NCBI GenBank assembly: GCA_002403075.1
Contig: DHHB01000012.1
Span: 13,767 to 77,766 of the forward strand
From: a bacterium UBP1_UBA4783
Lineage (GTDB): Bacteria > Krumholzibacteriota > Krumholzibacteriia > Krumholzibacteriales > Krumholzibacteriaceae
Reading direction: 5' to 3'
Length of the DNA: 64,000 nucleotides
Part shown: positions 535 through 25,247 of the stretch, in pieces
Layout: each line of letters begins with the position of its first letter
How positions within the stretch are numbered: position 1 is the first letter of the stretch
The notes under the pieces: model-generated
What the model was told of the DNA's origin: nothing
What the model saw: the letters and a program-made list of their open reading frames with translations, nothing else
Database searches by the model: none
Position numbers and translations under genes: made by a program

Positions 535-1429
535 GGAACGCGCGTGCGCCGGCGCGCTCTCTCAAACGGCGGTCATCGCCGCGCTCGCCCTCGCGTTCGT
601 CTCGCACGCCGCTCCCGCTCACGGCCGCTTCGATCGGACGGCGCTCACCGCGCGGTCGGCCGCCGCCGGAGGAGCGACGGTTTCATGCGCGGACGGAATC
701 GACGCGATGTTCGTGAACCCCGCAGGTCTCGCATCCGTCGGCGGCCTCGAGGCCTACGCCGATTACGCCGAGGCCGGCCTGCCGGCGTTTTCCCGCGAAA
801 CGCGTCTCGCTCTCGGCGGCGGCGCCGGGTTCGCGAGCTTCGGCGTCGGCTGGTACCGGCTCGCCGGGGACGCCGCCGGAGAGGATTTCATCGCCGCGGG
901 CGCCGCGCGAACGGTCGTCTCGGGCACGCAGGGATCGTACATCGCGATCGGAGCCTCCGCCGTCGCCGGCAGGGCGGCCGCGTCGGCGCCGGAACCTCCA
1001 AGCGAAAACGAATGGACGCCGGTCGGGGCCGACATCGGCGTCATCGTCCGGCCGCTTCCCGTCGTCTCGTTCGGCTACGCGGCGGGAAACGTCTTCGACC
1101 GGGATGCGGATGCCGGGGATTCCGGGGGATGGGGGAGAACGGTCCGATGGGGCTTCTCCTATTACTGGGAGAACGCCGTCACGCTGTCGTTCGCGCGGAG
1201 CGCCTCCGGCGGAGAGACGGCGCAGCATTTTGGGATCGTCGCCCGCACCGCGGTTCCGGTCGAGCTCATCTTCGGCCTCTCGAACGGCAAGGCGTCGGGC
1301 GGCGTGCGCTGGACCGGCCGGCGGCTGCGGGCCTGCGTCGCCTTCGTCCCCGGAGAGGTTTCGGGCGCGACGTGGATGATTTCATGCGAGGGAACGCTCA
1401 AACCCTCGCGGGAGGCCGAATGGCGGTGA
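518..1429 (+). CDS. PorV/FadL-like outer-membrane beta-barrel protein
   Basis: Signal-peptide-like N-terminus (ALALAFVSHAAPAHG). ADG..AMFVNPAGLA motif matches the N-terminal signature of the PorV/FadL-like family. Gly/Ala-rich alternating pattern consistent with a beta-barrel. Overlaps the next gene by 10 nt. Confidence 0.55.
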   Translation: MKPMNEERACAGALSQTAVIAALALAFVSHAAPAHGRFDRTALTARSAAAGGATVSCADGIDAMFVNPAGLASVGGLEAYADYAEAGLPAFSRETRLALGGGAGFASFGVGWYRLAGDAAGEDFIAAGAARTVVSGTQGSYIAIGASAVAGRAAASAPEPPSENEWTPVGADIGVIVRPLPVVSFGYAAGNVFDRDADAGDSGGWGRTVRWGFSYYWENAVTLSFARSASGGETAQHFGIVARTAVPVELIFGLSNGKASGGVRWTGRRLRACVAFVPGEVSGATWMISCEGTLKPSREAEWR

Positions 1430-4880: not shown

Positions 4881-4903
4881 GCCCGCGGGAGTATTATCGC
4901 GCC

Positions 4904-5311
4904 ATGCGAAAGATCCTCTCGATCCCGTCGGCCGTCGGAGCGCTCGTCGCCGCTCTCGGGACGATAGCCTCGTGCGGCGGCCTGCTCGAGAACCGCGTCG
5001 CCTCGCCGGTCGTGTCGGGGGACGAAGTCACTTTTCGACTGAAGAGCCCGTCGGCGCGCACGGTCCAGATCGCCGGCGATTGGCCGGGCAACAACTGGGC
5101 GCGCGGCGACGCGGAAGCGGGAGAGGTGCTCGTCGGACTCATGCGGGGCGGGGCCGAGAGCGGCGTCTGGGAGGTGACGGTGCGTCTCGAGCCGGGACGT
5201 TACCGGTATCGATTTCTCGTGAACGAATCCGTTTGGCTTTTCGATCCGGACAATCCGCGGATCGTGGACGACGGGAGAGGGGGGAAGGCAAACCTGCTCA
5301 TCGTGCCGTAA
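4904..5311 (+). CDS. CBM48 domain lipoprotein
   Basis: ATG with a lipoprotein-type signal (LGTIASCGG). EVTFRLKSPSARTVQIAGDWPGNNW...YRYRFLVNESVWLFDPDNP matches the CBM48 motif. Confidence 0.65.
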   Translation: MRKILSIPSAVGALVAALGTIASCGGLLENRVASPVVSGDEVTFRLKSPSARTVQIAGDWPGNNWARGDAEAGEVLVGLMRGGAESGVWEVTVRLEPGRYRYRFLVNESVWLFDPDNPRIVDDGRGGKANLLIVP

Positions 5312-5314
5312 AGC

Positions 5315-5707
5315 ATGAAACACATGTGGACGAGATCGTTTCTCGCTTTCCTTTTTTGTGTCGCGGCGATCGTTCCCGCCTGCGGTCCCGGTTTCTCGGG
5401 GATCGAGGGCGGACGGGGGGCGGCGGGACCCGAGCGCGCGGAGGGCGGGATCCGTTTCAGCCTTCATCACCCTAAGGCGAAGAAAGTGGCTATCGCCGGA
5501 GATTTCAACGGGTGGTCGCCGACCGCCGATCGGCTCTTCGACCGCGAAGACAAGGGGCTCTGGTCGATCGTTCTTCCGCTTCCGCCCGGCCGGTACGAAT
5601 ACAAGTTCGTGGTCGACGGGGAAAAATGGATCCCGGATCCCGGGAATCCCGAGCGTGAGAAAGACGGCTTCGGGGGGTACAACTCCGTGGCGGTGATAGC
5701 TCCCTAA
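5315..5707 (+). CDS. CBM48 domain lipoprotein
   Basis: Starts 4 nt after the previous stop. Lipobox (IVPACGPG). IRFSLHHPKAKKVAIAGDFNGWSP...YEYKFVVDGEKWIPDPGNP matches the CBM48 motif. Confidence 0.7.
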   Translation: MKHMWTRSFLAFLFCVAAIVPACGPGFSGIEGGRGAAGPERAEGGIRFSLHHPKAKKVAIAGDFNGWSPTADRLFDREDKGLWSIVLPLPPGRYEYKFVVDGEKWIPDPGNPEREKDGFGGYNSVAVIAP

Positions 5708-5797
5708 CGGGCCCGAGCGGACTATCGTTCACAGTGGAACGGAGCCGCGGCGAAACGGGTATTGCAGATTGCTATGGAGTTTGCTATTTTCAGCTTG

Positions 5798-5803
5798 TAT
5801 AAT
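5798..5803 (+). promoter_or_regulatory. perfect -10 hexamer TATAAT inside a 380-bp AT-rich island upstream of the giant gene
   Basis: cttgTATAATaag. The -35 is poor. The surrounding 5708-6090 is the only strongly AT-rich stretch in the first 37 kb. Confidence 0.3.
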
Positions 5804-6090
5804 AAGTTACGCCAAGGCGCCGGCGGTCCTCGAATACCGTTCGCGGGTCAAGTCCCCGGAAATAGCGAGGGAACGACGCTCGAGCCGATCCAAAGAGAAT
5901 ATTGTAATCAATTAATTTAAAAGTCGTTACGTCACAAGAGGGGGGAGATTTTCGGCCGTCCGCCAATCGCCCGCTTGAGAGGAGCGGGAATTTGTCATAG
6001 CCTCTCGTGTGGCGGCGGTTGGTTGGCATGCACTTTGCGGTATTGATTCTGAACCATTTTCAGACCTCGGTCGGGAGCCGTATTCGAGAC

Positions 6091-9000
6091 ATGAACAAGC
6101 GATCGAACATTCGCCCCGCGGCGCTCGTATTCGGGCTTTTCATCTGCATGCTCGCGGCCGCCGGCGCCCAGGCGGGGCCGGGATCGGGCGCGGCTTCGAT
6201 CGCCCCTTCCGCCGCTGTCGCGGCGGGCTCGGCCGGCACATGGACGATCACATACACCGCCGCCGAGACCTTCGTCGCGGGAACGATCGAAATCGAGATT
6301 CCGGATGGCTGGAGCGCCCCGCAGTTATCGAACTCCTCCGCGCGCGGCTTCGTTACGGCGTCGTCGATGGGGACGCTCGGGACGCCGGCATTGTCGATCA
6401 GCGGAAGAAACATCGTCGTTTCCGTCGCCGCCCTCGAGGTGAACCAGACGGTCGATGTCGTGTACGGAGACGCGTCGATCCATCAGAGCGGCGCCGCGGT
6501 CGCGCAAAGCAACCCCCAAACCGGAGTCCAGTTTCTCGTGCGGTCGGATTCGAACGGCCCGGGCAGGATGCCGATCGCCTCGTCCCCCCGGATCGACATC
6601 GTCGCGATTATCGCGGCGCAACTTGTATTCGTCACGCCTCCGCGCGTCTTTCCCGCGGACGGCGAGAGCGGCGCGATCGGGCTCGCGACGCTCGACGAGT
6701 TCGGGAGCCCCTCGCCGGTCGAGGCGGATTTGCGCATTCACCTCGCTTCGAGCGCGCCGACCGGACGTTTCTCCGCCGCTCCCGGGGCGGGTTTTTCGGA
6801 GACGGATACGGTGACGATCCTGGCGGGGACCGATACGGCGTTCTTCTACTATCGTGACCCCGTCGCCGGAATAAAGACGATCACCGCGTCCGCGGTGGAA
6901 CAGGGCTGGATCGATCCGCAGCAGACGGTCACCGTCGAGCCGGGCGAGCCGTTCAGGCTCCGGGCGGTTCCGGCCGATACGCTCGCGATCGCCGGCGAAT
7001 ACGTCCGGTATCGCCTGCGGATCGAGGATTCTCTCGGCAACCCGAGCACAGCCTCGAGCAGCCAAACGATATCGCTCTTCGGACAGCCGGGGAGCTTCTA
7101 CGCGACCGCCGATCACTCGACCCCGATCTCGCAGATCGTCATCCCGGCCGGCGTATCCTCGATATCGCTCGATTACCGGAATACCGTCAAAGCGCTCAGC
7201 ACGCCGTATATTCTCGGTTTCTTCGATCAGGACGGGACGCCGCCGACGCTCGAGGCGGCTTCGGCCTCGATCTACATCGATCACGCCGCCTACAGTCCGG
7301 TCGCTTCGGACGTCGGTTCCGCCGATCCGCTCGCGGTCGCGGACGGCGCCGACCCGGTCCCCCTCGTCGCGTACGTCCGAGACGCGTTTTTCAACGGCGT
7401 CGACGGCGCGACGGTGGTGTTCATGGCGACGGGCTCGGGCAACTCGATCTCGCAGCCCGGCGGCGTGACCGGCTCCAACGGCCGCGCGAACGGTTCGATG
7501 ACGTCCACGGTCGCCGGGCAGAAGACGGTCACCGCGCACGTCGGCGGCGTGTATATCGATCATAGCGTCGTCGCGACCTTCGTCGCGGGTCCGTTCGATC
7601 CGTCGGTGTCGGACGTCGCGGTGGACAAGAGTGTCGCGGCGGCGGACGGAGCGGACTCGATCTCGGTGACGGTGACGGTTCGGGACGCCGAGGGGAACGC
7701 GATAACGGGGAGCGTGGTGACGCTCGAGTGCACGGGGAGCGGGAACGCGATCCGACAGCCGGTGGGTGCGACGGGTGCGGACGGGACGGCGAGGGGGAGC
7801 GTCGTATCGACGACGGCGGAGGCGAAGACGATCCGGGCGCGAGCGAACGGTCTGTACCTCGCGGAGCAGGCTGCGGTGACCTTCGTCGCGGGTCCGTTCG
7901 ATCCCGACAACTCCACGGTGGCGATCGACAAGACGACGATCGTCGCGAACGGAGTCGACGCGGGGATCGTGACGGTGACGGTTCGGGACGCGAGCGGCAA
8001 TCCGGTGTCCGGAAGGACCGTTACGATCGAATGTTCGGGCGGCGACAATGCGATTCAGCAGCCGGCCGTTCCGACGGGAGCCGACGGTCGCGCGGTCGGA
8101 AGCGTGGCGTCGACGCGAGCGGAGTCGAAAACGGTCGCGGCCCGCGTCGACGGGGTTCTTGTGACGGAAACGGCGCCGGCGATCTTCGTCGCCGGTCCGT
8201 TCGACGCGAACGTTTCGAATCTCGAGGTCGACAAGACGACGATCGTCGCGGACGGCGTCGATTCGGTTCTCGTGACGGCGACCGTCAGAGACGCCAACGG
8301 GAATCCGATCGCGGGCAGGGCCGTGACGATCGAATGCAACGGAACGGGAAACACGATCCGGCAGCCGGCCGGCGCGACGGACGCTCTCGGCCGGGCCGTG
8401 GGAAGCGTGAAATCCTCCGTCGCGGCGGGGAAGACGATCACGGCGCGGGTGGACGCTCTGTATCTCGCGGACGCGGTTCCGGTCGTTTTCGTCGCGGGTC
8501 CCTTCGATCCGTCGGTATCGGGTCTCGGCGTCGACAAAACGACGATAACGGCGGACGGCGCGGATTCCGTGCTCGTAACCGTCACCGCGAGGGACGCCCT
8601 CGGAAATCCGATTTCGGGAAGAACCGTGGCGATCGAGTGCACGGGGAGCGGGAACGCGATCCATCAGCCCGTCGGGTTCACCGGCGCCGACGGCCGCGCG
8701 GTCGGAAGCGTGAAATCGACCGTGGCCGAGGCGAAGACGATCCGAGGCCGCGTCGACGGGGCGCTCGTCGCGGCGGCGGCCGCGGTGAGCTTCGTGCCGG
8801 GGCCGTTCGATCCGGGCGTTTCAGAAATTCAAGTCGACAAGACGACCATCATCGCGGACGGGGTGGACGCGGTGTCCGTGACGGTGCGCGTGCGCGACGC
8901 CGACGCGAATCCGATCGCGGGCGCGCTCGTCGCCATAGAATGTTCGGGGAGCGGGAACGTGATTACGCAGCCCGTCGGCGTGACGGGCGCGGACGGCCGC

Positions 9001-12000
9001 GCGGTCGGAAACGTGAAATCGACCGTCGCCGAGATTAAGAGCGTCCGCGCCCGCGCGGGAGGCGTGCCGCTCGACGATATCGTCCCCGTCGCGTTCACCG
9101 CGGGGGCCCTTCATCATTTCATCGTCACGCACGCGGGATCGGCGACGGCGGGAGTTCCCGCGTCGGTGACCGTCGACGCGCGCGACGCGAACGGCAACAA
9201 GCTCACCTCCTTCGCCGGCGCGGTCAGGGTGTACCCGCTGAGGGCTTCGGCCGCCGACGAGGCGACGTGGGGGCTCGGCAACGCCGCCGGCTCGATCGTA
9301 TCGGAAACGCAGGACACGGTGACGTACCAGTTCGTGTTCGCTGACGCGGGCGACGCCGAGCTCCTCATCACGGACCGGAAGGTCGAATCGGTGACGATCG
9401 GAGCGTCGAGCGGCGGCGTGACCTCGCTCTCCGCGGCTCCGCTCATCGTGGGGCCCGCCGCGGCGGACAGCGTCTTCGTCGTGAGCGGGAACGGCCAGCG
9501 CGCCGTCGTCGACACGCCGGTGCCTCTGCCGCTCGTCGTGGCGGTGGAGGACCGGTTCGGCAACCGCGTGAGCGGCGTCACGGTGAGCTTCGCCGTGACC
9601 GCGGGCGGCGGATACGTCGACGCGAGCGTCGCGCTGCCAGGCCAGCAGACGACGGCGGTCACCGGGATTCAGGGGACCGCATCTTGCGAGCATTGGCGCC
9701 TCGGCACGGCGAGCGGCGCCGGCGTGAACGCCGTCACCGCCTCCATCTCCACGGGGGGGACGAGGGAAGCGTACTTCACGGCGATCGCCGATCACGGACC
9801 GATCGCCTCGATCGTGCTCGCGCCCGCGAGCAAGCCGGTGACGGTGAACACCGAGACGATCGTGACCGCGACGCTTCGGGACGCTTTCGGCAACCTCGTG
9901 TTCGGTCAGTACGTGACGATGTATATCAAGGATGCGCCGGACGGGTTCCTCGGCGCCGCTCCCGGCAGCGCGACGGAGGAACTCTCGCTCTGGATGCGCC
10001 GCGGCATGAGCGACAGCACCGGCACCGTCTCGGTCGCTTATGCGGCGCCGGCCACCGCGGGGGCGCAGGACGTCATCGACGCGTACCACAATTCTATCCC
10101 GGCCGCGGATGTCGTCGACGCCGTCTATTCGACCGTATCGAGCGGCGCGACCGATCTTCGTGCGACCCTCCTCTCCGGCCCGACGTCGCAGGCGGGGATC
10201 GCGTTTTCGTTCCTCGTCGAAGCGGTCGACGGGAACGGCAACCGCGATCTTTCGAACACGAGCCACATCGTTCTCGAGCCGCCCCCGGGAGGCGGCTTCG
10301 TTTTCAGTCTCGTCGATTTCGGCGCGCCGGCGACCGAAGCGGATCTCTCGGCCGGAGCCGTCGTCATCTATGGGCGCGGCACGCAGGCCGGCGCGTGGCA
10401 GATCGCAGCGCGCGACGCGGCCGAGTTTCTCGCCCCGGCGCAGTGCGCGGTGGAGATCGTCGCGAACGAAACCGTGAGCTCGTACGCCGTCGCCGCCCCG
10501 GCGAGCGCGACGGCAGGAGCCGATTTCACGCTCAGCGCGGAAGCGCGAGACGCCTACGGAAACCGAGTATTAACAGCTGGTTACAACATAGACTTTAGAG
10601 CGGTTCGAGCCTCCGACAGCACGCAGGCGGCTTCGCGCGCGCTTTCCGTGGCGAGCGGCACCCTGGCGAACGGGCTCTACAGCGGAGCGAATTTCCGGTA
10701 CGAAGCGGCGGAGCTGATCCGGATCGAAGTGACGAGCGCGAGCAACGCGGCCGCGGGGTACAGCGGCGCGATCGCCGTCGACAACGCCGCGGCGTACCTT
10801 CTCGCGAAGATCGGCGGCGACAGCGCGGGAGTGGCGGCGGGGGATTCACTGCGTCTTCGCGCGCGTGTCTTCGACGCGTTCGGAAACGCCGTCGACGGAC
10901 AGAACGTATTCTTCACGGTGCAGGAGGGGGACGGCCGGGTTTCCTCTCCGCTCGCCGTTACCGACGCTTCGGGCGCGGCGTGGGTCTGGTTCCGCACCGA
11001 TACGATTCGCGGAACGAACCGCGTGCGCGCGGCCATCCTCGACGCGAATCCCGAAGGGCTCGAGACGCAGAGCTACACGGTGGCCACGATCCCGAGGAGC
11101 GAGGTCGATCGCGTCGAGCTCGCTTTGTCCGGAACCTCCTTCCGGGCGGGAGAGATCTTCGCGGGGAACGTCGCCGCGTACGACGTCTACGGCAACCTCA
11201 TCGACACCGATTCGGGCACGCAGCTCCGTCCCGCGGCCCTTCGCGCGTCGGTCGATTTCAATCCCGAAATCATGACGCTGGAGGCGGGAAGATCGTCGTT
11301 CGCCGCGTTCGATTCGGTCGCCGGCGCGAACCGCATCGAGATCCTCTCGCTCGCGGGAGATACGCTCTCCGCTCCCGGCGCTTCTTATACGATCGCGCCG
11401 GCCCAGGCCTACCGGATCACCGAGATATCGGGCGACACGGCCGGCGTCACGGTCGGCGCCGGCGTCGAGCTCCGCGTCCGCGTGCGGGACCGTTACGGAA
11501 ACGCCGTCGCGGGAGAGATCGTGCGGTTCCAGATCACGAGCAATCTCGGCGGCGCGCCCGCGCTCTGGGACGGCACCGGCGCTCCGAACGACGGGATCGT
11601 GCTCACCGGAGCCGGCGGAGCGGCGAGCTGCTTCCTCGTGACGGATCCGAACGCCGGGCTCAACACCGTGACCGCCTCCATTCTCGACGCCGATCCGCCG
11701 GCCCTCGAGCGGGTCGTCTTCGAGGTCGGCACGATCGCCGGGACGATCGCCCGTTTCGACGTCGTACCGGACGGCTTCGCGAAAAAGGCCGGAGAGAGCT
11801 TCGCCGTCCAGATCGTCGCGTACGATCTCAACGGCAACGTGGCGGCGGACGACGATACGACGCGCGTCGATCTCGGAAGCGACGGATCGGCCGCCTACGC
11901 CGTCAATCCGGTCGTCCTTTCGGGAGGGCGCGCGACGGCGAACGCGAGCGACACCGTCGCGGAGCGGCTCGTGCTCCGCGCCCGCACGCTCGCGGGGGGC

Positions 12001-15000
12001 GCGACGAGCTACAGCGATACGATCGTCGTCTCTCCCGAGGCGCCGAGCGGCGTCATCGCGTTCGCGTCGGTGACCCCCGACACGATCACCGCGAACGGCA
12101 CGAGCGTGAGCTCGATCACCACTCGGCCGATCCGGGACATGTACGGCAACGTTGTTTCTCCGGGAACCCTCGTGCGCGTCACGCCGTCGCTCGGATCGGT
12201 CGGGAGCGACGACCAGGATCCGTCGACCCCGGATACGAAGGAGCGCCGGACGGAGGCGAGCGGCGCCGTCTCCGTGTTCATACGCTCGGCTTCGTCGCCG
12301 GGAGCGTCGAACGTGGTTTTCCAGAGCCTCTCGGGGAGCGCGGCCGGTACGGCGTCCGTGATCTTCGCTCCTCCTCCGTCGTGCTTCTACGCCGGATATC
12401 TCACGCCGCGCCACCTCGTGCCGACCGAAGCCGTCGAGCTGCGCTGTTCGGCCGCGAACGTGAGCGCGACGGGCGTTTCACTCGCGACTGCGACGACGAT
12501 CTCGTTCGCGGACAGCGCCGGCCACGCGTACGAAGCTCATCTCGCGGCGCCGATGTACCTCCGCGGTTCCTCGGCCGACACGCTCCGATTCGCCTCCGTC
12601 GCGGTTCCCACCGGCATGCTCGGAGGAACGTATACGCCCCGCGTCTCGCTCGTCGGAACCGATAGGTACGGGTACGCGTATCGCGGCGAGTTCGCCGCCG
12701 GATCGAATTCGATTTCGATTTCGGACGTCGCTATCGAGAGCGTCGTCGCGGAAAAGGCGATCCTGAGCAGAGGGGACACGTTCACGGTGGACGTGCGGGT
12801 GCACAACGGGGGCGGGTCCACGGTCGCGGTGAACGACATCACGCTGAACTATAGCAACGGGCTGTACGGTCTCGTCGGCTCGTGGGATCCTCCGCTCCCG
12901 AGCAACCTGGCCCCCGGGGGCGTGCGCGTGTTCCGGCGATCCATATTCGTTCTCGGGTATTCGCCGCTCGGTCCCGATACGATCGACGCCTCGGTAACCG
13001 CCCAGGCGAACGGCTCGCAGGTGCAGGATCCGTCCGCGTACCCGAACGTCGCGGCCGTCGTCATCCAGTCCGCCGCGTCGATCGGCTACGTCGCGGGAAC
13101 GCTCGCTCCTGACACGGTCTCGCAAGGGCAGACGCATTCGTTCGCGGTGTCGTTCCGTAACAGCGGGCAGGCGGCGGTCATACTCAACGCGGCGGACACG
13201 CGTCTCGGCTTCACCGACGGAGCCGACGCCGTATCGATCTCCCTCGGTTTCGAGGGCGCGCTGCCGGGCAACAGAACGACCGAGCTCGTCTTTCCTCCGG
13301 TCGAAGTGCCGGCGTCCGTGGACGCGGGAAGCTGGCCGGTGACGGTCAGGCTCCGAGGGACCGAGAACGGCGGACATCTCGACACGACGCTCGTTCTGTC
13401 CGACCAGATCCGTGTCGTGAGCCCCGCCGCTCTCTCGTACGGGAGCGGCACGCTCGCTCCGCCCGCGGTCAGCAAGCGGAGCACCGTCTCGTTCGAGGCG
13501 GGGATCGTGAACGCCGGCGGAGCGACGGTGATGTGCGATCCCGATTCGACCCGGTTCACCTTCACGGACGGATCTCTTGCCTACACGGCGACCCTCGACC
13601 CGGCGCGGGGCCGATCGATCGGCCCGGGCTCCTCCACGCTCTACTTCAGGGCGGTCGCGATTCCGGCCGGCATCGCCGTCGGAAGCTATCAGCCTTCGAT
13701 GCGGATTCGGGGTTTCGAGAACGGCCTTCCCTTCGCCGCCGACCTCGCGCTCTCCGATCCGGTCGGCGTGCAGGAGCCTTCCCAGCTCGCCATCACGAGC
13801 ACGACGGTGTTCCCGTCGCCGCTCGTCACGGCCGATCAGTCGGCGCCGTGGTTCGCCGCCGTGCAGGTCCAGAACAACGGCGGAGCCGCCGTCCGCCTCG
13901 AAAGCCTCTCCATGAGGCTCCTCGCGGGTCCCGTCGATGTGACGGGTCAATGCGTCCTCACTCCGATAGACTTCGTGCCGAACGTCGATTCGCTGCTCGG
14001 AGGCGAATCGCGGGCGATCGCCGTGCGGCTCGACGACAACCCCTCGAACGGGATGACGACGGGAACGATCGTCATCGAGTCGGCGATCGCCGGCCGCGAT
14101 CTCAACAGCGGCGCGGCGCTCCTCGCCACCACCGAGTACGGCGGCAAGGGGAGCTATCTCGTGCAGACCCCCGCGAGCCTGGTTTTCACGTCGATCTCGC
14201 CGTCGGTCGACACGGTCACGGCGCTTCAAACGAAGGATTGGATACTGGCCGTCGCGGTCCGGAACGCGGGCCAATCCGACATGCAAATCGATCTCTCTCC
14301 GGCCGCCACGTTCGTGTCGTTCTCGACGTCGGGCGATTTCGCGACGATTCCGCCCGCCGCGCTCGCGGGCGGCGGGACCCTGCTCGAAGGCGGGGCGACC
14401 GACACGCTCCTGTGGCGGGTGGACCGGACCGGCTCCGTCGCCGGGAGCTGCCTCATCGCAGCGACCGTGCGCGCCGTGGAATCGAACAGCGGACGGGCGT
14501 TCGTCGCCTCGAGCGGCGCGCAAGGGGTCCGCGGAAACGCGCTCGTGCAGACGCCCGCCGTGCTCGGCATCGTCGGCATCACGCCGCTCCAGAATCCTGT
14601 GACGATCTCGCAGGAGCGCTCGTGGAGCGTCGAGATGGAAGTGCGCAACACGGGCCAGTCGGATGTCGCCCTTCTCCTCGCGCGCGTCGATTCGACGCGG
14701 GTCGCGATTCCCGAAGGCAGCGGATTCGTCATCGGCAATCCGTCCTCGCTCGCGGGCGGCGGCACGGTTCTTCGCGGGGGCGCCGCCGGTCGGCTCGTCT
14801 TTGCCGTCTCGACGACGGGAACGGCCGCGCCGGGCGCCCGGGAGATCGTCGGATCGGTCCTCGCCGTGGAGTCGAACAGCGACCGGCGGGTGTTCGCGTC
14901 CCGCGCCGAGGGCGGGGACACGGTCACCTTGCAGCTTCGTCCCGAACCGGCGTATGCGGCGGGAAGCCTCGCCCCGACGGCCGCGAGCAGCGGAACGAGC

Positions 15001-18000
15001 GTGTCGTTCGAGGCGGCGGTCGAGACCGCCGCCGGGCTGTACGCCACGCTCGTCCTCGATCGCGGGGCGACGATCCTCAGCTTCGGCGACGCCGACGGCG
15101 ACACGTTTCGAACGGCTCTCTCCGCCGTTTCCACGAACGTTCTGCCGCCCGCGGCGCAGCGAACGCTCCTCTTCGACGCGAATACGATCGATCCCGCCGT
15201 CGCGCTCGGGAGACACTCCGCGTCGCTTCGGCTCGTCGGCGAGGAGAACGGCAATCCGTTTTCCCGCGTGCTGCCGCTCGCGCCCGATTCGATTCTCGTC
15301 GAGCGCGCGCCGCAGCTCAGCATCAGCCGTGTCGCGGTTCCCCCGTCGGTCACCCGATCGCAGACCGCGCCGTGGACCGTGAGGATGGTGCTCCGCAACA
15401 ACGGCGAAGCGTCCGTCGATCTCGACCTCTCCGAGGCCAAGACGTTCCTTTCCTTTACGATCATCGGCGCGGGCGACCGGACGTACGAGTACGCCGTCGC
15501 GAGGCCGGCGGCGCTCGCGGGGCGGGGCGGAACGGTGCTTCCGGGAGGAGCGATCGACAGCCTCGTCTTCACGATCACCGGGACCGGCTCGACTCCGGGG
15601 ATAGCGCTCGTGAACGGCACCGTGACGGGGACCGACGTCAACAGCAATCTCACCGTGTCGGACGATACGTATAACGGCGGATTCAGCCACGTCGCGGTCG
15701 AGCTGCCGGGCGAACCCGTCGTCGCCTCGAGCGCGCCCTCGCGGGCCACGGTGACGTCCGGACAGACGACCGCGTGGCAGATAGCCTGCGAAGTATGCAA
15801 CACCGGGGAGGCCGATCTCACTCTCGTGCCCGACAGCGCGCGCGTGTACCGCGACGACGGCGAACCTCTCGCGCACGAGCGCCCCGCCTCGTTCGTCGAG
15901 GGGGGGCTCGCCCTGCCGGGCGGCGCATGCCGCCATCTCCTGTTCTCGGTATCCCCGACGCCGGTGATTCCCGCGGGCGCCGACATCGTCCTCCACGCCC
16001 GCGTCGCGTTGGTCGAGAACAACAACGGAATACAGCGCTTCTTCGACACGCGCCTCGCCGGTTCGGGCTCGGGTTCGATCCGCGTGCAGTCGCCGGCGCT
16101 GCTTTCGATCGCTCTCGCCTCCTGCGTGTCGCCGCGCCGGCCCTACGTCAACGAGGGACAGCGGTTCTCCGTCGTCGTCGCGGCGGCGAACGGCGGCGAA
16201 GCGCGCGCCGAGAGCGTCCGTCTCGCGCTCGAGGGATCGGGCTCGTCGGCGATCGAGGATACGCTCGCCGTCATGGAGGCCGTCGCCGGCGGCGGCGCGG
16301 TTTCAGACACCTTTTTCGTCATCGCGGCCGGAGCGGGGGATGAGGTCTTCACGGCGCGCTTGCGCGGCGCCGTCGACGCGAACTCCGGGCAGGAGGATCT
16401 CGCGGCGTTCGCCTCAGCCACGGACGACACGGCGCTCGTCGTGATACAGGTTCCGGCCTCCCTCGCGGTGACCGCGGTCGCCCCGTCCCAGAGCGCCGTG
16501 AACGCGGGCCAGACGGTGGAGTGGACGGTCCGCGTGAGCCTTCGCAACTTCGGCGAGGCTCCCCTCGAGATCGATCCGCCCGCTCCGGCGGATGTGTCCT
16601 TTGCGATCGGCGGCGCCGCGGTCGGCGGGTATCTCGTCGTGGCGCCGGACGGGTTCGCGTCGGGAGTCACTCCGCTCGTCCTCGAGGGTGGCGCCTCGGA
16701 CAGCCTTATCTACCGGATCGCGGCGACCGGCCGGGATACGGGCACCGTCGACGTCGTCGCGGCATTCGATTGGCGCGACGGGAACGATCCGGCCGCGCCG
16801 CGCGTTCCCGCATCGGGGGGCTGCCAGGTGCGCGTGAAACCCCCGTCGGGGCTCAGGATACTCTCCGTGACGAGCGCCGCGCCGAACAACGCCGCGTTTC
16901 CGAATACCTCGATCGTCAACACCGGCCAGACGTTCACGGTCTCCGTGCGGGTCGAGAACACCGGCGGAGACGATCTCGACAGCGTGCTCGTGAGACTCGC
17001 GACGAACGGCGTCTCGGGCACCGTCGCCGCGGGCGATTCGATCGCCTACATGCCGTCGAGATCGGAGCGCGATTTCGTCTCTACGGTGACCGCCGCCCCG
17101 GCGCCCGCCGTCGAATATCTGCGCGCCTCGATCGTGAAAGCCGTTTCGGTCAACACCGGCGAGCGGGTGACGCCGGCGGAAGCCGTCGAATCGATCGAAA
17201 ACCTCCGCATCGAGCTTCCGGCGCTCCTCGCCTGTGTCGCGTCGGTCACGGCGCCCGCCGGCGCCGTCGACGACACGCTCTCGACCGGCCAGCGGTTCGT
17301 CGTGACGGCCGTCGTCGAAAACGAGGGGCAGGCGGGCATCGATACGACGGGGAGGATGACGCTCGTCCTGCCCGCCGGCATGGATCTCGCCGATCCGGGC
17401 GAGCCCCTCGCGAAGCGGTTCGCAGCGGGGGTTCCGCTCGCGTGGACGATCGTCGCGCCGGCGTCTCCTTCGCTCGATACCGTGCTCGCGGCGATCAGCT
17501 CGATCCCCGAGGACGCGAATATCGCTGCGCCGGCCGCGGTTCGAAACGCGGAGGCGCGCGTCGTCGTTTTCGTCGAGCCCGCGGCCCGCATCGAGAATTG
17601 CGCGGTGTCGCTCGCGGCGCCCCCGGGCGCGGTCGACGGCACGCTCTCCACGGATCAGGATTTCGTCGCCCGCTCGTCCTTCGTTCCGTCGGCGAACGCC
17701 GATTCCCTCTGGGTCGAGATCGATCCGCCGGCGGGCTTCTCCGTCGCGAGCGAGACCGCCAAGTACGTCGGGAGGGGAACTGGCGCCGCGGTCGCGCGCG
17801 ACTGGATCGTTCGCGCTCCGGTGAGCCCCGCGGCGGTCGATACGATCGCCGCCCGGGTCGTCGGCATCGACGTCAATTCGGGGGAACGCATCGCGCCGTG
17901 CCGGGCGGTCTTCGCGGTGCGGGTGGTCGAGAAAGCGGCGCTGTCCCTCGCCGGGGGGATCTCGGGGCCCCCCGAGGCGCTCGACGGAGTGGTCTCGGTG

Positions 18001-19128
18001 AATCAGGTTTTCACGGTCGAGGCGTCGGCGTCGAAGGCCGGCGAGGCCGGCGTCGATACGGCCGGCGCTCGGATCGAGCTCGTCCTGCCCGCCGGACAGG
18101 GGTACGCGCTCGACGGCGCTACCGAAACGTACCGGAAGCCGTTCTATCCGGGCGGGTCCGTCGCGTGGCGGATCCGCGCGCCGGGCGCTCCCACGGCTCC
18201 CGGCATCCTGCGGCTGCGGTTCGCCGAGCCGTACGCGAGGGACGTCAACACGAACCTCGCCTGCGCGATCTCGCAGGGCGAGGTCTTCCTGCCGGTGCAA
18301 ACGGAGGCCGGGGCCGTCCGCATGTCGAACGTGTCGGCCGCCGATTCCATCCCGCCGGTCGTCGTTCCCCAGGGAGCCTCCGGGGTGCCGGTTATGCGGG
18401 CGGCGCTGCGGAACGCGTCGAGCTACACGATCGGTCTCGACACGGTGTACGTCGCCGTCACGGACGGTCGCGGACGCCTCGTATCGCCGCCGTCGCGTCG
18501 CATCGCCGCTCTCGCGCTCGTCGCCGGAGGCGTCAGGTACGAGACGGCGGCTCCGGGGCACAACCCCGTTCCGATGGCGGTCGATCACGGTTTCGAGATC
18601 GGTCCCGGCGCCGCGGACACGATCCTCATCGTCGCAGACGTCGCGGAGGACGCCCCGCCCGGGGAGCTCCGATTCGAGATCGAGCGGAGCGCGGACGTGA
18701 TCGTTTCCATCACCCTCGACGGCGGGGGCGCGGGCGAACGAGTCGGCGTCGTGAACGAGCAGGGCGGCGATATCGCGGGCTCGTTCCTGAGCGGACCGCT
18801 CTCGGTCATGAGCGCGCGGTTCGAGGAGTACGTTCACAACTACCCGAATCCGTTCCGCGCCGGTTCCCAGGAAACGCGTATCTGCTATTTCCTGACGCGG
18901 AACGCGGGCGTATCGATACGCATCTACGATCTCGCCGGCAGCCTCGTCTGGACGAAGGAGATTGCAGCCGGCGCTCCGGGCGGCACCGGTTCCCCGGAAG
19001 GGATCATGCACGAGATTGCATGGGACGGTCGCAACGCCAGAGGCGAGATCGTCCGAAACGGCGTCTATCTCTGCAAGCTCGAGGCGGGCTCGCAATCGGC
19101 GCTCTTCAAGATCGCCGTCGCGAAGTGA
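6091..19128 (+). CDS. giant (4345 aa) secreted adhesin-like protein: signal peptide, tandem Big_1 Ig-like repeats, further Ig-like domains, ~17 CARDB-like repeats, T9SS-type C-terminal sorting domain
   Basis: ATG at 6091 gives the signal peptide MNKRSNIRPAALVFGLFICMLAAAGAQA. The table ORF starts at GTG 6007. Six 101-aa repeats (FVAGPFDP..VDKTTI.ADG.D...VTVRDA.GNP..G..V.IEC.G.GN) fall within a longer series of Ig-like domains. Later ~120-aa repeats carry RN.G.. motifs typical of CARDB. The last ~95 aa match the TIGR04183-like CTD: YPNPFRAGS...RIYDLAGSLVW...WDGRNARGEIVRNGVYLCKLEAGSQ. Confidence 0.85.
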   Translation: MNKRSNIRPAALVFGLFICMLAAAGAQAGPGSGAASIAPSAAVAAGSAGTWTITYTAAETFVAGTIEIEIPDGWSAPQLSNSSARGFVTASSMGTLGTPALSISGRNIVVSVAALEVNQTVDVVYGDASIHQSGAAVAQSNPQTGVQFLVRSDSNGPGRMPIASSPRIDIVAIIAAQLVFVTPPRVFPADGESGAIGLATLDEFGSPSPVEADLRIHLASSAPTGRFSAAPGAGFSETDTVTILAGTDTAFFYYRDPVAGIKTITASAVEQGWIDPQQTVTVEPGEPFRLRAVPADTLAIAGEYVRYRLRIEDSLGNPSTASSSQTISLFGQPGSFYATADHSTPISQIVIPAGVSSISLDYRNTVKALSTPYILGFFDQDGTPPTLEAASASIYIDHAAYSPVASDVGSADPLAVADGADPVPLVAYVRDAFFNGVDGATVVFMATGSGNSISQPGGVTGSNGRANGSMTSTVAGQKTVTAHVGGVYIDHSVVATFVAGPFDPSVSDVAVDKSVAAADGADSISVTVTVRDAEGNAITGSVVTLECTGSGNAIRQPVGATGADGTARGSVVSTTAEAKTIRARANGLYLAEQAAVTFVAGPFDPDNSTVAIDKTTIVANGVDAGIVTVTVRDASGNPVSGRTVTIECSGGDNAIQQPAVPTGADGRAVGSVASTRAESKTVAARVDGVLVTETAPAIFVAGPFDANVSNLEVDKTTIVADGVDSVLVTATVRDANGNPIAGRAVTIECNGTGNTIRQPAGATDALGRAVGSVKSSVAAGKTITARVDALYLADAVPVVFVAGPFDPSVSGLGVDKTTITADGADSVLVTVTARDALGNPISGRTVAIECTGSGNAIHQPVGFTGADGRAVGSVKSTVAEAKTIRGRVDGALVAAAAAVSFVPGPFDPGVSEIQVDKTTIIADGVDAVSVTVRVRDADANPIAGALVAIECSGSGNVITQPVGVTGADGRAVGNVKSTVAEIKSVRARAGGVPLDDIVPVAFTAGALHHFIVTHAGSATAGVPASVTVDARDANGNKLTSFAGAVRVYPLRASAADEATWGLGNAAGSIVSETQDTVTYQFVFADAGDAELLITDRKVESVTIGASSGGVTSLSAAPLIVGPAAADSVFVVSGNGQRAVVDTPVPLPLVVAVEDRFGNRVSGVTVSFAVTAGGGYVDASVALPGQQTTAVTGIQGTASCEHWRLGTASGAGVNAVTASISTGGTREAYFTAIADHGPIASIVLAPASKPVTVNTETIVTATLRDAFGNLVFGQYVTMYIKDAPDGFLGAAPGSATEELSLWMRRGMSDSTGTVSVAYAAPATAGAQDVIDAYHNSIPAADVVDAVYSTVSSGATDLRATLLSGPTSQAGIAFSFLVEAVDGNGNRDLSNTSHIVLEPPPGGGFVFSLVDFGAPATEADLSAGAVVIYGRGTQAGAWQIAARDAAEFLAPAQCAVEIVANETVSSYAVAAPASATAGADFTLSAEARDAYGNRVLTAGYNIDFRAVRASDSTQAASRALSVASGTLANGLYSGANFRYEAAELIRIEVTSASNAAAGYSGAIAVDNAAAYLLAKIGGDSAGVAAGDSLRLRARVFDAFGNAVDGQNVFFTVQEGDGRVSSPLAVTDASGAAWVWFRTDTIRGTNRVRAAILDANPEGLETQSYTVATIPRSEVDRVELALSGTSFRAGEIFAGNVAAYDVYGNLIDTDSGTQLRPAALRASVDFNPEIMTLEAGRSSFAAFDSVAGANRIEILSLAGDTLSAPGASYTIAPAQAYRITEISGDTAGVTVGAGVELRVRVRDRYGNAVAGEIVRFQITSNLGGAPALWDGTGAPNDGIVLTGAGGAASCFLVTDPNAGLNTVTASILDADPPALERVVFEVGTIAGTIARFDVVPDGFAKKAGESFAVQIVAYDLNGNVAADDDTTRVDLGSDGSAAYAVNPVVLSGGRATANASDTVAERLVLRARTLAGGATSYSDTIVVSPEAPSGVIAFASVTPDTITANGTSVSSITTRPIRDMYGNVVSPGTLVRVTPSLGSVGSDDQDPSTPDTKERRTEASGAVSVFIRSASSPGASNVVFQSLSGSAAGTASVIFAPPPSCFYAGYLTPRHLVPTEAVELRCSAANVSATGVSLATATTISFADSAGHAYEAHLAAPMYLRGSSADTLRFASVAVPTGMLGGTYTPRVSLVGTDRYGYAYRGEFAAGSNSISISDVAIESVVAEKAILSRGDTFTVDVRVHNGGGSTVAVNDITLNYSNGLYGLVGSWDPPLPSNLAPGGVRVFRRSIFVLGYSPLGPDTIDASVTAQANGSQVQDPSAYPNVAAVVIQSAASIGYVAGTLAPDTVSQGQTHSFAVSFRNSGQAAVILNAADTRLGFTDGADAVSISLGFEGALPGNRTTELVFPPVEVPASVDAGSWPVTVRLRGTENGGHLDTTLVLSDQIRVVSPAALSYGSGTLAPPAVSKRSTVSFEAGIVNAGGATVMCDPDSTRFTFTDGSLAYTATLDPARGRSIGPGSSTLYFRAVAIPAGIAVGSYQPSMRIRGFENGLPFAADLALSDPVGVQEPSQLAITSTTVFPSPLVTADQSAPWFAAVQVQNNGGAAVRLESLSMRLLAGPVDVTGQCVLTPIDFVPNVDSLLGGESRAIAVRLDDNPSNGMTTGTIVIESAIAGRDLNSGAALLATTEYGGKGSYLVQTPASLVFTSISPSVDTVTALQTKDWILAVAVRNAGQSDMQIDLSPAATFVSFSTSGDFATIPPAALAGGGTLLEGGATDTLLWRVDRTGSVAGSCLIAATVRAVESNSGRAFVASSGAQGVRGNALVQTPAVLGIVGITPLQNPVTISQERSWSVEMEVRNTGQSDVALLLARVDSTRVAIPEGSGFVIGNPSSLAGGGTVLRGGAAGRLVFAVSTTGTAAPGAREIVGSVLAVESNSDRRVFASRAEGGDTVTLQLRPEPAYAAGSLAPTAASSGTSVSFEAAVETAAGLYATLVLDRGATILSFGDADGDTFRTALSAVSTNVLPPAAQRTLLFDANTIDPAVALGRHSASLRLVGEENGNPFSRVLPLAPDSILVERAPQLSISRVAVPPSVTRSQTAPWTVRMVLRNNGEASVDLDLSEAKTFLSFTIIGAGDRTYEYAVARPAALAGRGGTVLPGGAIDSLVFTITGTGSTPGIALVNGTVTGTDVNSNLTVSDDTYNGGFSHVAVELPGEPVVASSAPSRATVTSGQTTAWQIACEVCNTGEADLTLVPDSARVYRDDGEPLAHERPASFVEGGLALPGGACRHLLFSVSPTPVIPAGADIVLHARVALVENNNGIQRFFDTRLAGSGSGSIRVQSPALLSIALASCVSPRRPYVNEGQRFSVVVAAANGGEARAESVRLALEGSGSSAIEDTLAVMEAVAGGGAVSDTFFVIAAGAGDEVFTARLRGAVDANSGQEDLAAFASATDDTALVVIQVPASLAVTAVAPSQSAVNAGQTVEWTVRVSLRNFGEAPLEIDPPAPADVSFAIGGAAVGGYLVVAPDGFASGVTPLVLEGGASDSLIYRIAATGRDTGTVDVVAAFDWRDGNDPAAPRVPASGGCQVRVKPPSGLRILSVTSAAPNNAAFPNTSIVNTGQTFTVSVRVENTGGDDLDSVLVRLATNGVSGTVAAGDSIAYMPSRSERDFVSTVTAAPAPAVEYLRASIVKAVSVNTGERVTPAEAVESIENLRIELPALLACVASVTAPAGAVDDTLSTGQRFVVTAVVENEGQAGIDTTGRMTLVLPAGMDLADPGEPLAKRFAAGVPLAWTIVAPASPSLDTVLAAISSIPEDANIAAPAAVRNAEARVVVFVEPAARIENCAVSLAAPPGAVDGTLSTDQDFVARSSFVPSANADSLWVEIDPPAGFSVASETAKYVGRGTGAAVARDWIVRAPVSPAAVDTIAARVVGIDVNSGERIAPCRAVFAVRVVEKAALSLAGGISGPPEALDGVVSVNQVFTVEASASKAGEAGVDTAGARIELVLPAGQGYALDGATETYRKPFYPGGSVAWRIRAPGAPTAPGILRLRFAEPYARDVNTNLACAISQGEVFLPVQTEAGAVRMSNVSAADSIPPVVVPQGASGVPVMRAALRNASSYTIGLDTVYVAVTDGRGRLVSPPSRRIAALALVAGGVRYETAAPGHNPVPMAVDHGFEIGPGAADTILIVADVAEDAPPGELRFEIERSADVIVSITLDGGGAGERVGVVNEQGGDIAGSFLSGPLSVMSARFEEYVHNYPNPFRAGSQETRICYFLTRNAGVSIRIYDLAGSLVWTKEIAAGAPGGTGSPEGIMHEIAWDGRNARGEIVRNGVYLCKLEAGSQSALFKIAVAK
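7276..9093 (+). repeat. six in-frame tandem copies of a 303-bp unit (Big_1 Ig-like domain) inside the giant gene
   Basis: The motif ttcgtcgcgggtccgttcgatcc recurs at 7579, 7882, 8185, 8488 and 8791 (303-bp period). The first and last copies are degenerate at DNA level. Confidence 0.8.
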
Positions 19129-21035
19129 TGAGCATGAGAACGAAACGACGCAGCACGGCTATCTGGATTCTCGCGCTCCTTCCGCTCCTCGCCGGGCCGG
19201 TCGCCGCGCAGGAAGGAACGGGGGGGACGCGCTCTATTTTCGCGCTCGGGGCGGGCTCGCGCGCCATCGCCATGGGGGGCGCCTTTTCCGCCGCCGGCGA
19301 CGACGCATCGGTCCTCCTCTACAATCCGGCGGCGCTCGCGCTCAACCGGTACACATCCGTTCTCGCGACCCACGCCCGGCTCTTCTCCGGCTGGAGCGAC
19401 GCGGGGTACGATTTCCTCGGATTCGTCTATCCGACCGTTTCGGCGGGCGCCTTCGGCGCGGGCTTCATGACGGCCGGGACGGACGGCATCCGGGGATTCG
19501 ACGAATGGAGCCGCGAGACCGGCGAGCTCACCTATCGCGAGAGTCAGGCGGTCATCGCCTACGCGTACACCCTTCCGTGGCGGTACGCGGGCGCGGTCAC
19601 CGCGGGATCCTCGGTCAAGATGCTCAGTCAGCGCGTCGGGGACTATTCGGATACGGGCACGGGCGTCGACGTCGGATTCGTGTTCCGGCCGCGCTGGGTC
19701 GAGGGGCTCAGCCTCGGCTGCAACCTTCAGGATATCGTCGGCGCCGAGATCAAGCTCGTTTCCGTGAGTGAACCCGTCGATCGCACGATCATGATCGGGG
19801 CGGGGTACGCCCGCGCCTTCGGAAACGGTTCGGCGATCCTTCTCGCGGCGCAGATGGACGCGCCCGAACGAGGCGACTCGCGGTTCCGCGCGGGGGTCGA
19901 GTACCGGTTCCGCGGCCTCTTCGCGGTCCGCGCCGGTTACGACGGCGAGGGCGTGACGGCGGGCGTCGGCGTCGGCTGGCGCGGCTTCGGCTTCGACTAC
20001 GGCTACATGAGCCGGGAGGACGCCGGCAGCACGCATCCCCTCTCGCTGTCCGCCCGCGTCGGCTCGTCGGTCGACGATCGGGTGCGGATACGCGAGGAAC
20101 GGCGGCTCGCGGAGCAGGAACGCCGGATCCAGCAGATACTCTCGAGCCGGATCGCGGGCCATATCGCCGAGGCGGAGCGGTTCCGGCTCGAGGGAGCGCC
20201 CGCGAAGGCGCTCGACGAGCTCAAGATCGCCCTCGAATACGATCCGACGAATCGGGCGGTCGCCGACACGATCGCCGTGGTCGAGCGCGCGATCCTCGCC
20301 GCCGAACAGGAGCGCACGCGAAACGCGGAGAAATCCGCGCTCATCAACCAGCACTTCCGGCTGGGTCTCGAATACTACGGCACGGGGGATTACATCAGGG
20401 CGCGCACCGAGTGGCGGAGCGCGCTCGAGATCGATCCGGAGAACGCGCAGGCCGCGGAGTACCTCGGCGCGACCGAGGACAAGCTCGGGAGTCTCGCGGA
20501 TCAGCACCGGACGCGCGCGCTCGATCTCGAGCAGCGCGGCCAGCTCGCCGCGGCGCTCGGCGAGTGGAACATGGTGCGGACGATCGCGCCCGAGTCCGCC
20601 GAAGCGAACGCCGCCGTGCAGCGTCTGACCGCGCGCGTCGACGAGCTGAGCCGCGATTACCTCACCGCCGCCAAACGTCTCCGTGTCGCCGAGCTCTACG
20701 AAGGCGCCGTGAAGGCGTTCGGCGAGGGGCGGTACCCCGACGCCGTGCGGCAGATCAGAGAGCTGCTCGGCATCGATCCGAACCACGCGGAGGCCCGCAC
20801 GCTGCTGCGCCGCGCGGAGCGGCGTATGACCCCGCTCGACGACGCCGAAAAGGCGGCGATCCGCGCGCTCTACCTCGAGGGCATGAGGCATTTCACGAAC
20901 GGCGATTACCTAAAGGCCGTCGAACGGTGGCAGCGCATCCTCGAGATCGATCCCGACAACGAGAGCGTGCTGAGGAATATCGATGAGGCCTCGAAGCGGC
21001 TCCGCAACAGCGGCGCGGCGGGAGGCGCACGATGA
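19128..21035 (+). CDS. PorV/FadL-like outer-membrane beta-barrel fused to C-terminal TPR repeats
   Basis: ATG overlaps the giant gene stop (TGATG). Signal peptide. IFALGAGSRAIAMGGAFSAAGDDASVLLYNPAALA is a PorV/FadL-like N-terminal motif. The C-terminal 300 aa are TPR-like helical repeats (LEYDP, LEIDPEN, LGIDPNH, LEIDPDN). Confidence 0.7.
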   Translation: MSMRTKRRSTAIWILALLPLLAGPVAAQEGTGGTRSIFALGAGSRAIAMGGAFSAAGDDASVLLYNPAALALNRYTSVLATHARLFSGWSDAGYDFLGFVYPTVSAGAFGAGFMTAGTDGIRGFDEWSRETGELTYRESQAVIAYAYTLPWRYAGAVTAGSSVKMLSQRVGDYSDTGTGVDVGFVFRPRWVEGLSLGCNLQDIVGAEIKLVSVSEPVDRTIMIGAGYARAFGNGSAILLAAQMDAPERGDSRFRAGVEYRFRGLFAVRAGYDGEGVTAGVGVGWRGFGFDYGYMSREDAGSTHPLSLSARVGSSVDDRVRIREERRLAEQERRIQQILSSRIAGHIAEAERFRLEGAPAKALDELKIALEYDPTNRAVADTIAVVERAILAAEQERTRNAEKSALINQHFRLGLEYYGTGDYIRARTEWRSALEIDPENAQAAEYLGATEDKLGSLADQHRTRALDLEQRGQLAAALGEWNMVRTIAPESAEANAAVQRLTARVDELSRDYLTAAKRLRVAELYEGAVKAFGEGRYPDAVRQIRELLGIDPNHAEARTLLRRAERRMTPLDDAEKAAIRALYLEGMRHFTNGDYLKAVERWQRILEIDPDNESVLRNIDEASKRLRNSGAAGGAR

Positions 21036-25243: not shown

Positions 25244-25247
25244 GCGA

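Follow-up and report, generated by a model that had tools for sequence, protein, structure and literature searches.

A 4345-residue modular protein with a T9SS type A-like C-terminal domain and a translationally coupled PorV-family gene: a probable surface fibre of a Krumholzibacteriota/UBP1 bacterium

We analyzed a 64,000-nucleotide (nt) stretch of DNA from bacterium UBP1_UBA4783 (contig DHHB01000012.1; the whole 64-kb stretch is hereafter referred to as the window), in which one 13-kb gene encodes a protein of 4345 amino acids (aa). The open reading frame (ORF) scan gave a frame at 6007–19128 on the forward strand comprising 4373 codons without a stop, and translation from the ATG at 6091 (gene 6091–19128, forward strand) yielded exactly 4345 aa. 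A stop-free run of 4373 codons has a chance probability of approximately 1e-45 at the base composition of the window, the third-position GC content of the giant gene (0.85) was the same as that of the other genes in the window, and independent gene calls on the ENA, JGI, Logan and NCBI assemblies gave the same 4345-aa product. These results indicate that the giant gene is real and intact. The coordinates and the length proposed by an earlier model that saw only the letters and their reading frames (the sequence-only reading) were exact; in place of the GC content of 70% that it gave, the window has 67.0% and the gene 68.8%. The minus-strand and other-frame ORFs of up to 1172 aa at 6325–19095 are spurious by-products of the 67–69% GC content. 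An assembly artefact was also ruled out by the several independent assemblies and the colinear orthologues, and collapse of repeats is of no concern because the 303-nt DNA tandem repeat underlying the Big_1 array is only 69% matched. The calculated mass and pI of the acidic, A/V/G/S/T-rich giant protein were 440 kDa and 4.7, and those of the mature form were 437 kDa and 4.65. Public records name it only as 'hypothetical' or 'Ig-like domain-containing'. The features of the locus are summarized in Table 1.

Table 1. Features of the giant gene and its surroundings. Positions are those of the window; residues are those of the giant protein.
Feature	Position (nt)	Strand	Residues	Characteristics	Basis
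Upstream outer-membrane protein	518–1429	+		303 aa; predicted 14-strand barrel with N-terminal plug-like segment	
Non-coding gap before giant gene	5708–6090	+		383 nt, locally AT-rich	
Sec-type signal peptide	6091–6174	+	1–28	Basic n-region, hydrophobic core, AQA/G cleavage motif	Inspection of translation
N-terminal region	6175–7320	+	29–410	No significant Pfam family	
Big_1/invasin-D3-type Ig array	7321–12336	+			Pfam, self-built HMM
17 tandem beta-sandwich repeats	12367–18798	+	2093–4236	Putative divergent CARDB relatives	Self-built HMM, AF2, profile search
C-terminal domain (CTD)	18799–19125	+	4237–4345	T9SS type A/FlgD-Ig type; ends at stop codon	TIGR04183, family profile
PorV/PorQ-family barrel with TPR extension	19128–21035	+		635 aa; barrel at aa ~30–310, then ~320 aa of helical/TPR repeats	NF033709, TPR families
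Five co-oriented, tightly spaced genes	21032–28072	+		1403-aa regulator, ParA/MinD-like ATPase, TPR protein, two single-STAS proteins	Pfam, NCBIfam
Terminator-like hairpin	28106–28133	+		12-bp stem with 11 G-C pairs, T-rich tail; after last STAS gene	Consensus match only
LTD protein with CTD	31744–33456	+		Two lamin-tail domains (LTD); aligns with CTD family	Pfam LTD 90 bits, FlgD_ig 22 bits

The giant protein ends in a 109-aa immunoglobulin (Ig)-like domain, which was compared with the C-terminal sorting domains (CTDs) of T9SS, the type IX secretion system. The isolated 116-aa C-terminus scored 29.1 bits against TIGR04183, above the cutoff of 23, and also matched the CTD ends of the models for PorU, PorZ and T9SS-dependent proteases. 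A search with the CTD gave 25 close homologues, many of which carry precomputed PF13860 and/or PF18962 matches, and NCBI gives one of them the name 'T9SS type A sorting domain-containing protein [Candidatus Krumholzibacteriota]'. TIGR04183 was matched by 24 of the 26 aligned CTDs (E<=6e-5). The best match of the CTD family profile in the PDB was the CTD of PorU (6za2, 9e-7), followed by the Ig domains of C5a peptidase (~4e-5), PorZ (5m11, 1e-4), a chain deposited as 'Por secretion system C-terminal sorting domain' (8glj_D, 3e-4) and FlgD (5e-4). The CTD of the giant protein has the motifs NYPNPF, IYDLAG, WDGRN..G..VRNGVY and a terminal FKIAVAK. In the 26-sequence alignment, NYPNPF is seen together with the pattern WDG..N..G..V.NGVY; Gly54 in the IYDxxG loop is invariant, and the terminal Lys-containing strand FKIAVAK is conserved across the 26 CTDs. 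The conserved Gly of the beta3–beta4 loop and the Lys of the C-terminal strand matter for the secretion of CTD proteins in Porphyromonas gingivalis (PMC11285876), and on alignment with PorU and PorZ the Gly loop and the last-strand Lys of the giant protein correspond to these published motifs. Four unrelated proteins in 79 kb of contig sequence end in this type of CTD, namely a 421-aa protein, an S8 peptidase, the giant protein and the LTD protein; a tail common to unrelated secreted proteins looks like a sorting signal. As judged from its profile matches, the C-terminal domain of the giant protein belongs to the T9SS type A/FlgD-Ig CTD family. The 421-aa protein, which has no assigned function, and the S8 subtilisin-like peptidase are encoded in the part of the contig upstream of the window (L009, 150–1415 and 4758–6494, respectively).

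The gene directly downstream encodes an outer-membrane barrel fused to tetratricopeptide repeats (TPR), and its ATG overlaps the TGA of the giant gene by 1 nt. The barrel scored 96 bits against the PorV_fam model (NF033709) over aa 39–308, above the cutoff of 90. The PorV-TPR architecture of ~630 aa is fixed in >100 database clusters at 50–97% identity, and NCBI names the orthologues 'PorV/PorQ family protein [Ca. Krumholzibacteria]'; some of them also match Pfam PorP_SprF. The PorV-TPR gene lies directly 3' of the giant gene in every relative seen. A search of the full PorV-TPR protein against PDB sequences returned designed TPR proteins only. A second barrel, the upstream outer-membrane protein, is encoded 4.7 kb from the giant gene with four genes between them. 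Its score against PorV_fam was 17.1 bits (cutoff 90), from a 32-residue N-terminal motif only. The AlphaFold2 (AF2) model built with 16 homologues had 14 strands and a mean predicted local distance difference test (pLDDT) score of 72.6, and the best Foldseek match was 6h3i_F, a barrel chain of 345 residues (E 6.7e-8, TM-score (TM) 0.62). The entry 6h3i is the SprA-PorV-PPI complex (PMC7463736), in which we infer chain F to be PorV. The upstream barrel is thus PorV-like by predicted fold only. The C-terminal TPR extension of ~320 aa distinguishes the downstream barrel from the solved ~345-residue 6h3i_F. The PorV proteins of Bacteroidota in general are not known to carry such an extension.

The N-terminal half of the giant protein begins with a classical Sec-type leader, recognized by inspection, in which MNKRSNIRPAALVFGLFICMLAAAGAQA precedes the cleavage site and GPG follows it. 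A hydrophobic leader is also present at the start of the full-length orthologues P0148, P0155 and P0158. The region at aa 29–410 gave only a sub-threshold BslA match (16 bits) in the Pfam scan; it shows weak internal similarity to the later Ig-like modules and is conserved in full-length orthologues. Self-BLAST of the whole protein returned the identity match only, and the repeats were resolved by windowed BLAST and self-built hidden Markov models (HMMs). Pfam Big_1 (PF02369) scored 347.8 bits over nine stretches, against a gathering score of 34.9, and Pfam Invasin_D3 scored 238.6 bits over seven. In the self-built Big_1 HMM, 12 copies were significant, at aa 411–1867, and a further two, reaching to aa 2082, were marginal. 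Six regular units of 101 aa occupy aa 411–994, followed by six diverged units to aa 1867; the diverged units are interspersed with other modules of ~100 aa, up to aa 2082. A strongly variable copy number of Big_1 had been considered on account of orthologues of 3429 and 3680 aa and was mostly withdrawn: the full-length orthologues differ by 1–2 units. The 3429-aa call (P0150; L013, CP070727.1) lacks a leader, and its first Met falls within a Big_1 domain; it is probably a truncated gene call, with the start set wrongly or a frameshift in the record.

The C-terminal half consists of 17 repeat units, of which 14 were significant in the iterated self-built HMM and three were recognized by eye; each is 114–168 aa long, typically ~125 aa. 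Against Pfam CARDB (PF07705), for which the gathering score is 22.7, the whole protein scored no more than 20.3 bits, with no significant stretch; of the 17 units taken singly, just two reached E<=1 (best, 0.0075). The AF2 model of the unit at aa 2819–2946 (pLDDT 88) is an eight-strand sandwich. Foldseek against the PDB matched it to generic Ig-like sandwiches, with TRAP-beta first (E 2e-4, TM ~0.5) and the CARDB structure 3idu at rank 46 (E 8e-3, TM 0.44), so that the fold search gives CARDB no distinction among such sandwiches. The repeats resemble CARDB in being beta-sandwiches of similar size and, in the alignment, in their start (PxxLxI..P..V..GQ...V.V.V.N.G) and their D/E-x-N-x-x-N-like end; they differ in that the units are ~125 aa long, compared with the 101 positions of the Pfam model, and fail its threshold when taken singly. 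The 17-unit profile matched 999 of 1.84 billion representative proteins, mostly of 2–6 kaa with 10–30 copies, and nothing significant among PDB sequences. Its best match was aa 3236–3348 of P0146, which coincides with a Pfam CARDB match at aa 3240–3324 (143.9 bits). On profile similarity, the repeats may therefore represent a diverged offshoot of CARDB, for which 'CARDB-like' is a fair label. P0146 (3857 aa) has ~30 copies of the repeat, true CARDB domains and C-terminal NHL repeats in place of the CTD, which indicates that the repeat family is also used in a giant protein anchored in a different way.

The sequence-only reading had described a secreted, modular giant protein with a signal peptide, a series of Big_1 Ig domains, about 17 CARDB-like repeats and, at its C-terminus, a sorting domain, and had placed PorV-like barrels on both sides of it. 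The leader is visible by eye in the translation, the Big_1 series is borne out by the Pfam score and by at least 12 copies in the self-built HMM, and the C-terminal assignment, which was to be abandoned if the domain failed to match T9SS/FlgD-Ig profiles, withstood the comparison with TIGR04183 and with PorU, the best PDB match of the family profile. The repeat count of 17 was reproduced; the CARDB label holds only loosely, below the Pfam threshold. As for the flanks, the downstream gene adjoins the giant gene and passes PorV_fam, and the upstream barrel is neither adjacent nor PorV-like in anything other than its predicted fold. On the whole, the observation holds and the interpretation put on it is borne out in part; the suggested role as a major adhesin or S-layer-like component is conjectural.

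Orthologues of the giant gene are colinear with it, at 72% identity in L005 and 47% in L013 and L014. The full-length orthologues (4171–4532 aa) are 43–46% identical over their longest segments and all end in IAVAK; the weakest of them, P0148, is 33–36% identical in three segments. All 17 repeats have one-to-one counterparts in the orthologues, and the length differences correspond to 1–2 Big_1 units. The order giant gene, PorV-TPR, regulator, ParA-like, TPR, STAS, STAS, 720-aa protein and LTD-CTD protein is kept in CP070727.1 (L013; GCA_020350885.1; closed, 4.13 Mb) and GCA_004196295.1, and the order from the giant gene to the STAS genes is the same in L005, L013 and L014. Upstream, the order S8-CTD peptidase, PPDK, DUF4388 protein, barrel, 508-aa protein and three CBM48 proteins is kept as well. 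In total, ~45 kb of gene order (window 1–33456; L013, L014, L015) is conserved across Krumholzibacteria, down to 44–57% identity of marker proteins. By these comparisons, the giant gene is a core gene of the group and not a strain-specific adhesin.

The phylogenetic position follows from the labels of the relatives. The PorV-TPR relatives in GTDB species genomes came from the metagenome-assembled genome (MAG) DeMMO6_31 (JAGUZZ01; 97%), 'bacterium UBP1_UBA4771' (DHHN01; 86%) and a Microflora Danica MAG (MFD04716.bin.1.315, CAWFAD01; 80%). NCBI labels the distant orthologues Candidatus Krumholzibacteria/-ota and some of them Latescibacterota, and the relatives have a GC content of 67–71%. The labels Krumholzibacteriota and Latescibacterota overlap, and Krumholzibacteriota, with 69–71% GC, belongs to the superphylum of Fibrobacterota, Chlorobiota and Bacteroidota (FCB) (PMC10936416); UBP1 is listed among the FCB neighbours of Marinimicrobia (PMC6143742). 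The lineage that had been proposed from the sequence, an FCB group outside Bacteroidetes, agrees with these labels, all of which are FCB.

The genes around the giant gene and its PorV-TPR partner suggest a regulated transcription unit. The 383-nt gap before the giant gene is likely a candidate promoter region of a new unit; a scan for the sigma-70 consensus gave no site, and a gap of the same kind (~390 nt) is kept before the giant gene in the distant relative L015. The PorV-TPR gene overlaps the gene for the 1403-aa regulator by 4 nt (21032–21035). The latter protein (21032–25243) combines an RsbW-like kinase, a Cache-like sensor, HAMP, a SpoIIE/PP2C phosphatase, a helix-turn-helix (HTH) and three STAS domains, and by its domain matches is an entire partner-switching circuit in one polypeptide. 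The five-gene partner-switching module is probably co-transcribed with the giant gene. The tight spacing and the hairpin behind the last STAS gene suggest a seven-gene operon, and the hairpin may possibly mark the end of this 22-kb operon.

Other genes nearby are recorded here as part of the locus. The conserved upstream block at 13–5707 contains six genes. One encodes a DUF4388/PatA_N protein, whose MshEN-type motif for binding cyclic di-GMP (c-di-GMP) scored 41.2 bits (cutoff 38), and another the 303-aa barrel. The remaining products are a 508-aa protein without a family, a protein of 645 aa whose N-terminal domain is CBM48/AMPK-CBM, and two small lipoprotein-like proteins with CBM48; a glycogen-binding-type module is here present in envelope proteins. 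Downstream, a 720-aa protein (28205–30367) and a 534-aa protein (35841–37445) are conserved and match no Pfam or NCBIfam family; the former keeps its place after the STAS genes in distant relatives. The LTD-CTD gene is followed by genes for a protein of ~250 aa (start ~33450) and a lipoprotein-like protein of ~525 aa (start ~34200), neither of which matches Pfam or NCBIfam, and 31744–35776 might represent another set of a cargo and its outer-membrane partner. Genes for a Kdo transferase and a heptosyltransferase are found at 44592–46945 on the reverse strand. They indicate that the organism makes a lipopolysaccharide (LPS) core, which is relevant to a possible LPS anchor of CTD cargo.

We consider it fairly probable that the giant protein is a cell-surface fibre of a diderm, LPS-bearing Krumholzibacteriota/UBP1-type bacterium and that it reaches the surface by a type IX-like export route. 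We assign the protein to T9SS because of its CTD family, its neighbours of the PorV family and the place of its host among the phyla, the FCB superphylum being the only group with reported T9SS and CTD proteins (PMC12398890, PMC11285876). The giant protein resembles type A cargo such as RgpB and HBP35 of P. gingivalis in having a Sec leader and a C-terminal Ig-like CTD of the ~80–110-aa type with a YPNP start, the conserved Gly loop and the Lys in the last strand (PMC11285876), and in that a PorV-family barrel is encoded nearby. It differs from typical cargo in being 5–10 times larger, in its Krumholzibacteriota/UBP1-type host and in having a PorV-family gene that carries a TPR fusion and is coupled in translation to that of the cargo.

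On this fibre reading, the signal peptide would direct the protein through Sec into the periplasm, and the CTD would target it to a type IX-like translocon in the outer membrane. A PorV-family barrel would collect it there, and the coupled PorV-TPR protein is the candidate for a cognate shuttle or anchor because of the gene linkage and because PorV shuttles type A cargo and the adjacent SprF barrel anchors SprB (PMC7463736, PMC12618676). Two fates of the CTD would then be conceivable: cleavage, with attachment of the protein to LPS as happens to type A cargo in Porphyromonas, or continued binding to the barrel. The product would be a chain of roughly 35–38 beta-sandwich domains, of the order of ~100–150 nm if extended. 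If the C-terminus is cell-proximal, the CARDB-like units would form the inner stalk, the Big_1 domains would lie further out, and the N-terminal region of ~380 aa would be at the tip. The adjacent partner-switching module probably regulates the fibre. The one-to-one conservation of domains and the conserved operon across the phylum point to a core structural or adhesive appendage of the envelope, and a strain-variable adhesin fits less well.

Several results weigh against type IX-like export. Pfam and NCBIfam scans of the window, and of four of the genes within the 10 kb read upstream of it, yielded none of PorK/L/M/N, Sov/SprA, PorU, PorT and PorW; the contig extends 14 kb before the window. 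No report of T9SS in Krumholzibacteriota or Latescibacterota was found in a literature search, and the FCB phyla listed as possibly having T9SS leave out Krumholzibacteriota (PMC11285876). Within the full-length protein, the CTD scored 21.4 bits against TIGR04183 (cutoff 23) and 23.3 bits against Pfam FlgD_ig (cutoff 27), and Pfam Por_Secre_tail gave no match. The downstream barrel was far below the equivalog cutoffs for PorV (NF033710, 19.8 vs 250) and PorQ (NF033711, 60 vs 220), and its profile matched no solved PorV among PDB sequences; by score, it belongs to the PorV/PorQ family and is orthologous to neither protein. Bacteria that lack T9SS can have PorV/FadL-like barrels too, and a relative of the downstream barrel with 24% identity was found in a MAG labelled Spirochaetes (L008). 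This relative is possibly split into two ORFs, and no giant gene lies upstream of it.

Among the alternatives, the one that fares best, although we regard it as unlikely, keeps the same export route and casts the giant protein as the subunit of an S-layer-like coat or of a sheath instead of as a protruding adhesive fibre. The S-layer of Tannerella, composed of TfsA and TfsB, is secreted by T9SS. Domain-for-domain conservation across the phylum at 43–47% identity, the conserved genomic context and the acidic A/V/G/S/T-rich composition would suit such a role; however, a linear string of ~35 small beta-sandwich domains over 4345 aa is typical of fibrillar adhesins and not of lattice proteins, and the Pfam scan recognized no self-assembly domain.

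A role in motility seems to us rather improbable. In Flavobacterium johnsoniae, the gene for the giant repetitive protein SprB lies directly upstream of the gene for the barrel SprF, which holds SprB (PMC7463736, PMC12618676). By analogy, the giant protein would be a filament held by the downstream barrel and moved along the surface under the control of the ParA/MinD-like ATPase and the partner-switching proteins. The giant gene followed by a PorV/PorP-like barrel gene mirrors sprB-sprF, as in these precedents, several barrel orthologues match Pfam PorP_SprF, and the conserved regulatory module has the c-di-GMP-binding DUF4388 protein in its vicinity. However, the CTD of SprB is of type B and the partner of SprB is of the PorP/SprF type, whereas the CTD here is type A-like, with no TIGR04131-type (type B) match, and the partner belongs to the PorV/PorQ family; against the model for the PorP family, the barrel of the window did not exceed 14 bits. 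The types of repeat also differ, and no gld genes were seen in the 79 kb.

We give little credence to the view that the C-terminal domain is a FlgD-type Ig fold without a sorting role, in a protein that is periplasmic or exported by another route and next to barrels that are unrelated FadL-like transporters. The near-threshold CTD scores in the full-length protein, the matches of FlgD and C5a-peptidase Ig domains to the CTD profile and the lack of a T9SS core gene in the contig sequence covered are in its favour. However, the domain is always the last one, on four unrelated secreted proteins, with a conserved terminal motif, the T9SS CTD models outscore the FlgD models, and the PorV-family gene stays coupled to the giant gene in relatives.

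An intimin/invasin-type inverse autotransporter (type Ve), which the tandem Big_1/invasin-D3 Ig stalk and the partial intimin matches confined to the Ig-repeat region bring to mind (NCBIfam intimin, 63 bits vs a cutoff of 1400, repeat positions 560–750 only), is refuted by the domain order and has practically no chance of being correct, since Pfam found no N-terminal beta-barrel or LysM and the anchoring or sorting signal is at the opposite, C-terminal end. A further difference from Big_1 fibrillar adhesins is that CARDB-like repeats make up half of the giant protein.

Beyond the fibre itself, we tentatively suggest, with low confidence, that the giant protein, the PorV-TPR protein and the partner-switching/ParA-like module may form one phylum-wide, signal-regulated surface-fibre apparatus, in which a type A-like cargo has its own PorV-type shuttle or anchor. 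If true, it would extend a dedicated-partner arrangement that has so far been described only for type B cargo with PorP/SprF, and no T9SS-dependent organelle would have been defined before it beyond the phyla in which T9SS has come under discussion.

The giant gene leaves the understanding of T9SS cargo or Ig-repeat adhesins unchanged. As a variant it is mildly unusual, in that the type A-like cargo shows genetic coupling both to a PorV-family-TPR protein of its own and to a regulatory module. Krumholzibacteriota/UBP1 has no cultured member, and a literature search returned nothing on the cell surface of the group. To judge from their sequences, CTD tags of the T9SS style and PorV-family barrels appear to be in use in Krumholzibacteriota/UBP1, and the giant protein is a phylum-conserved candidate for the main surface appendage of these bacteria.

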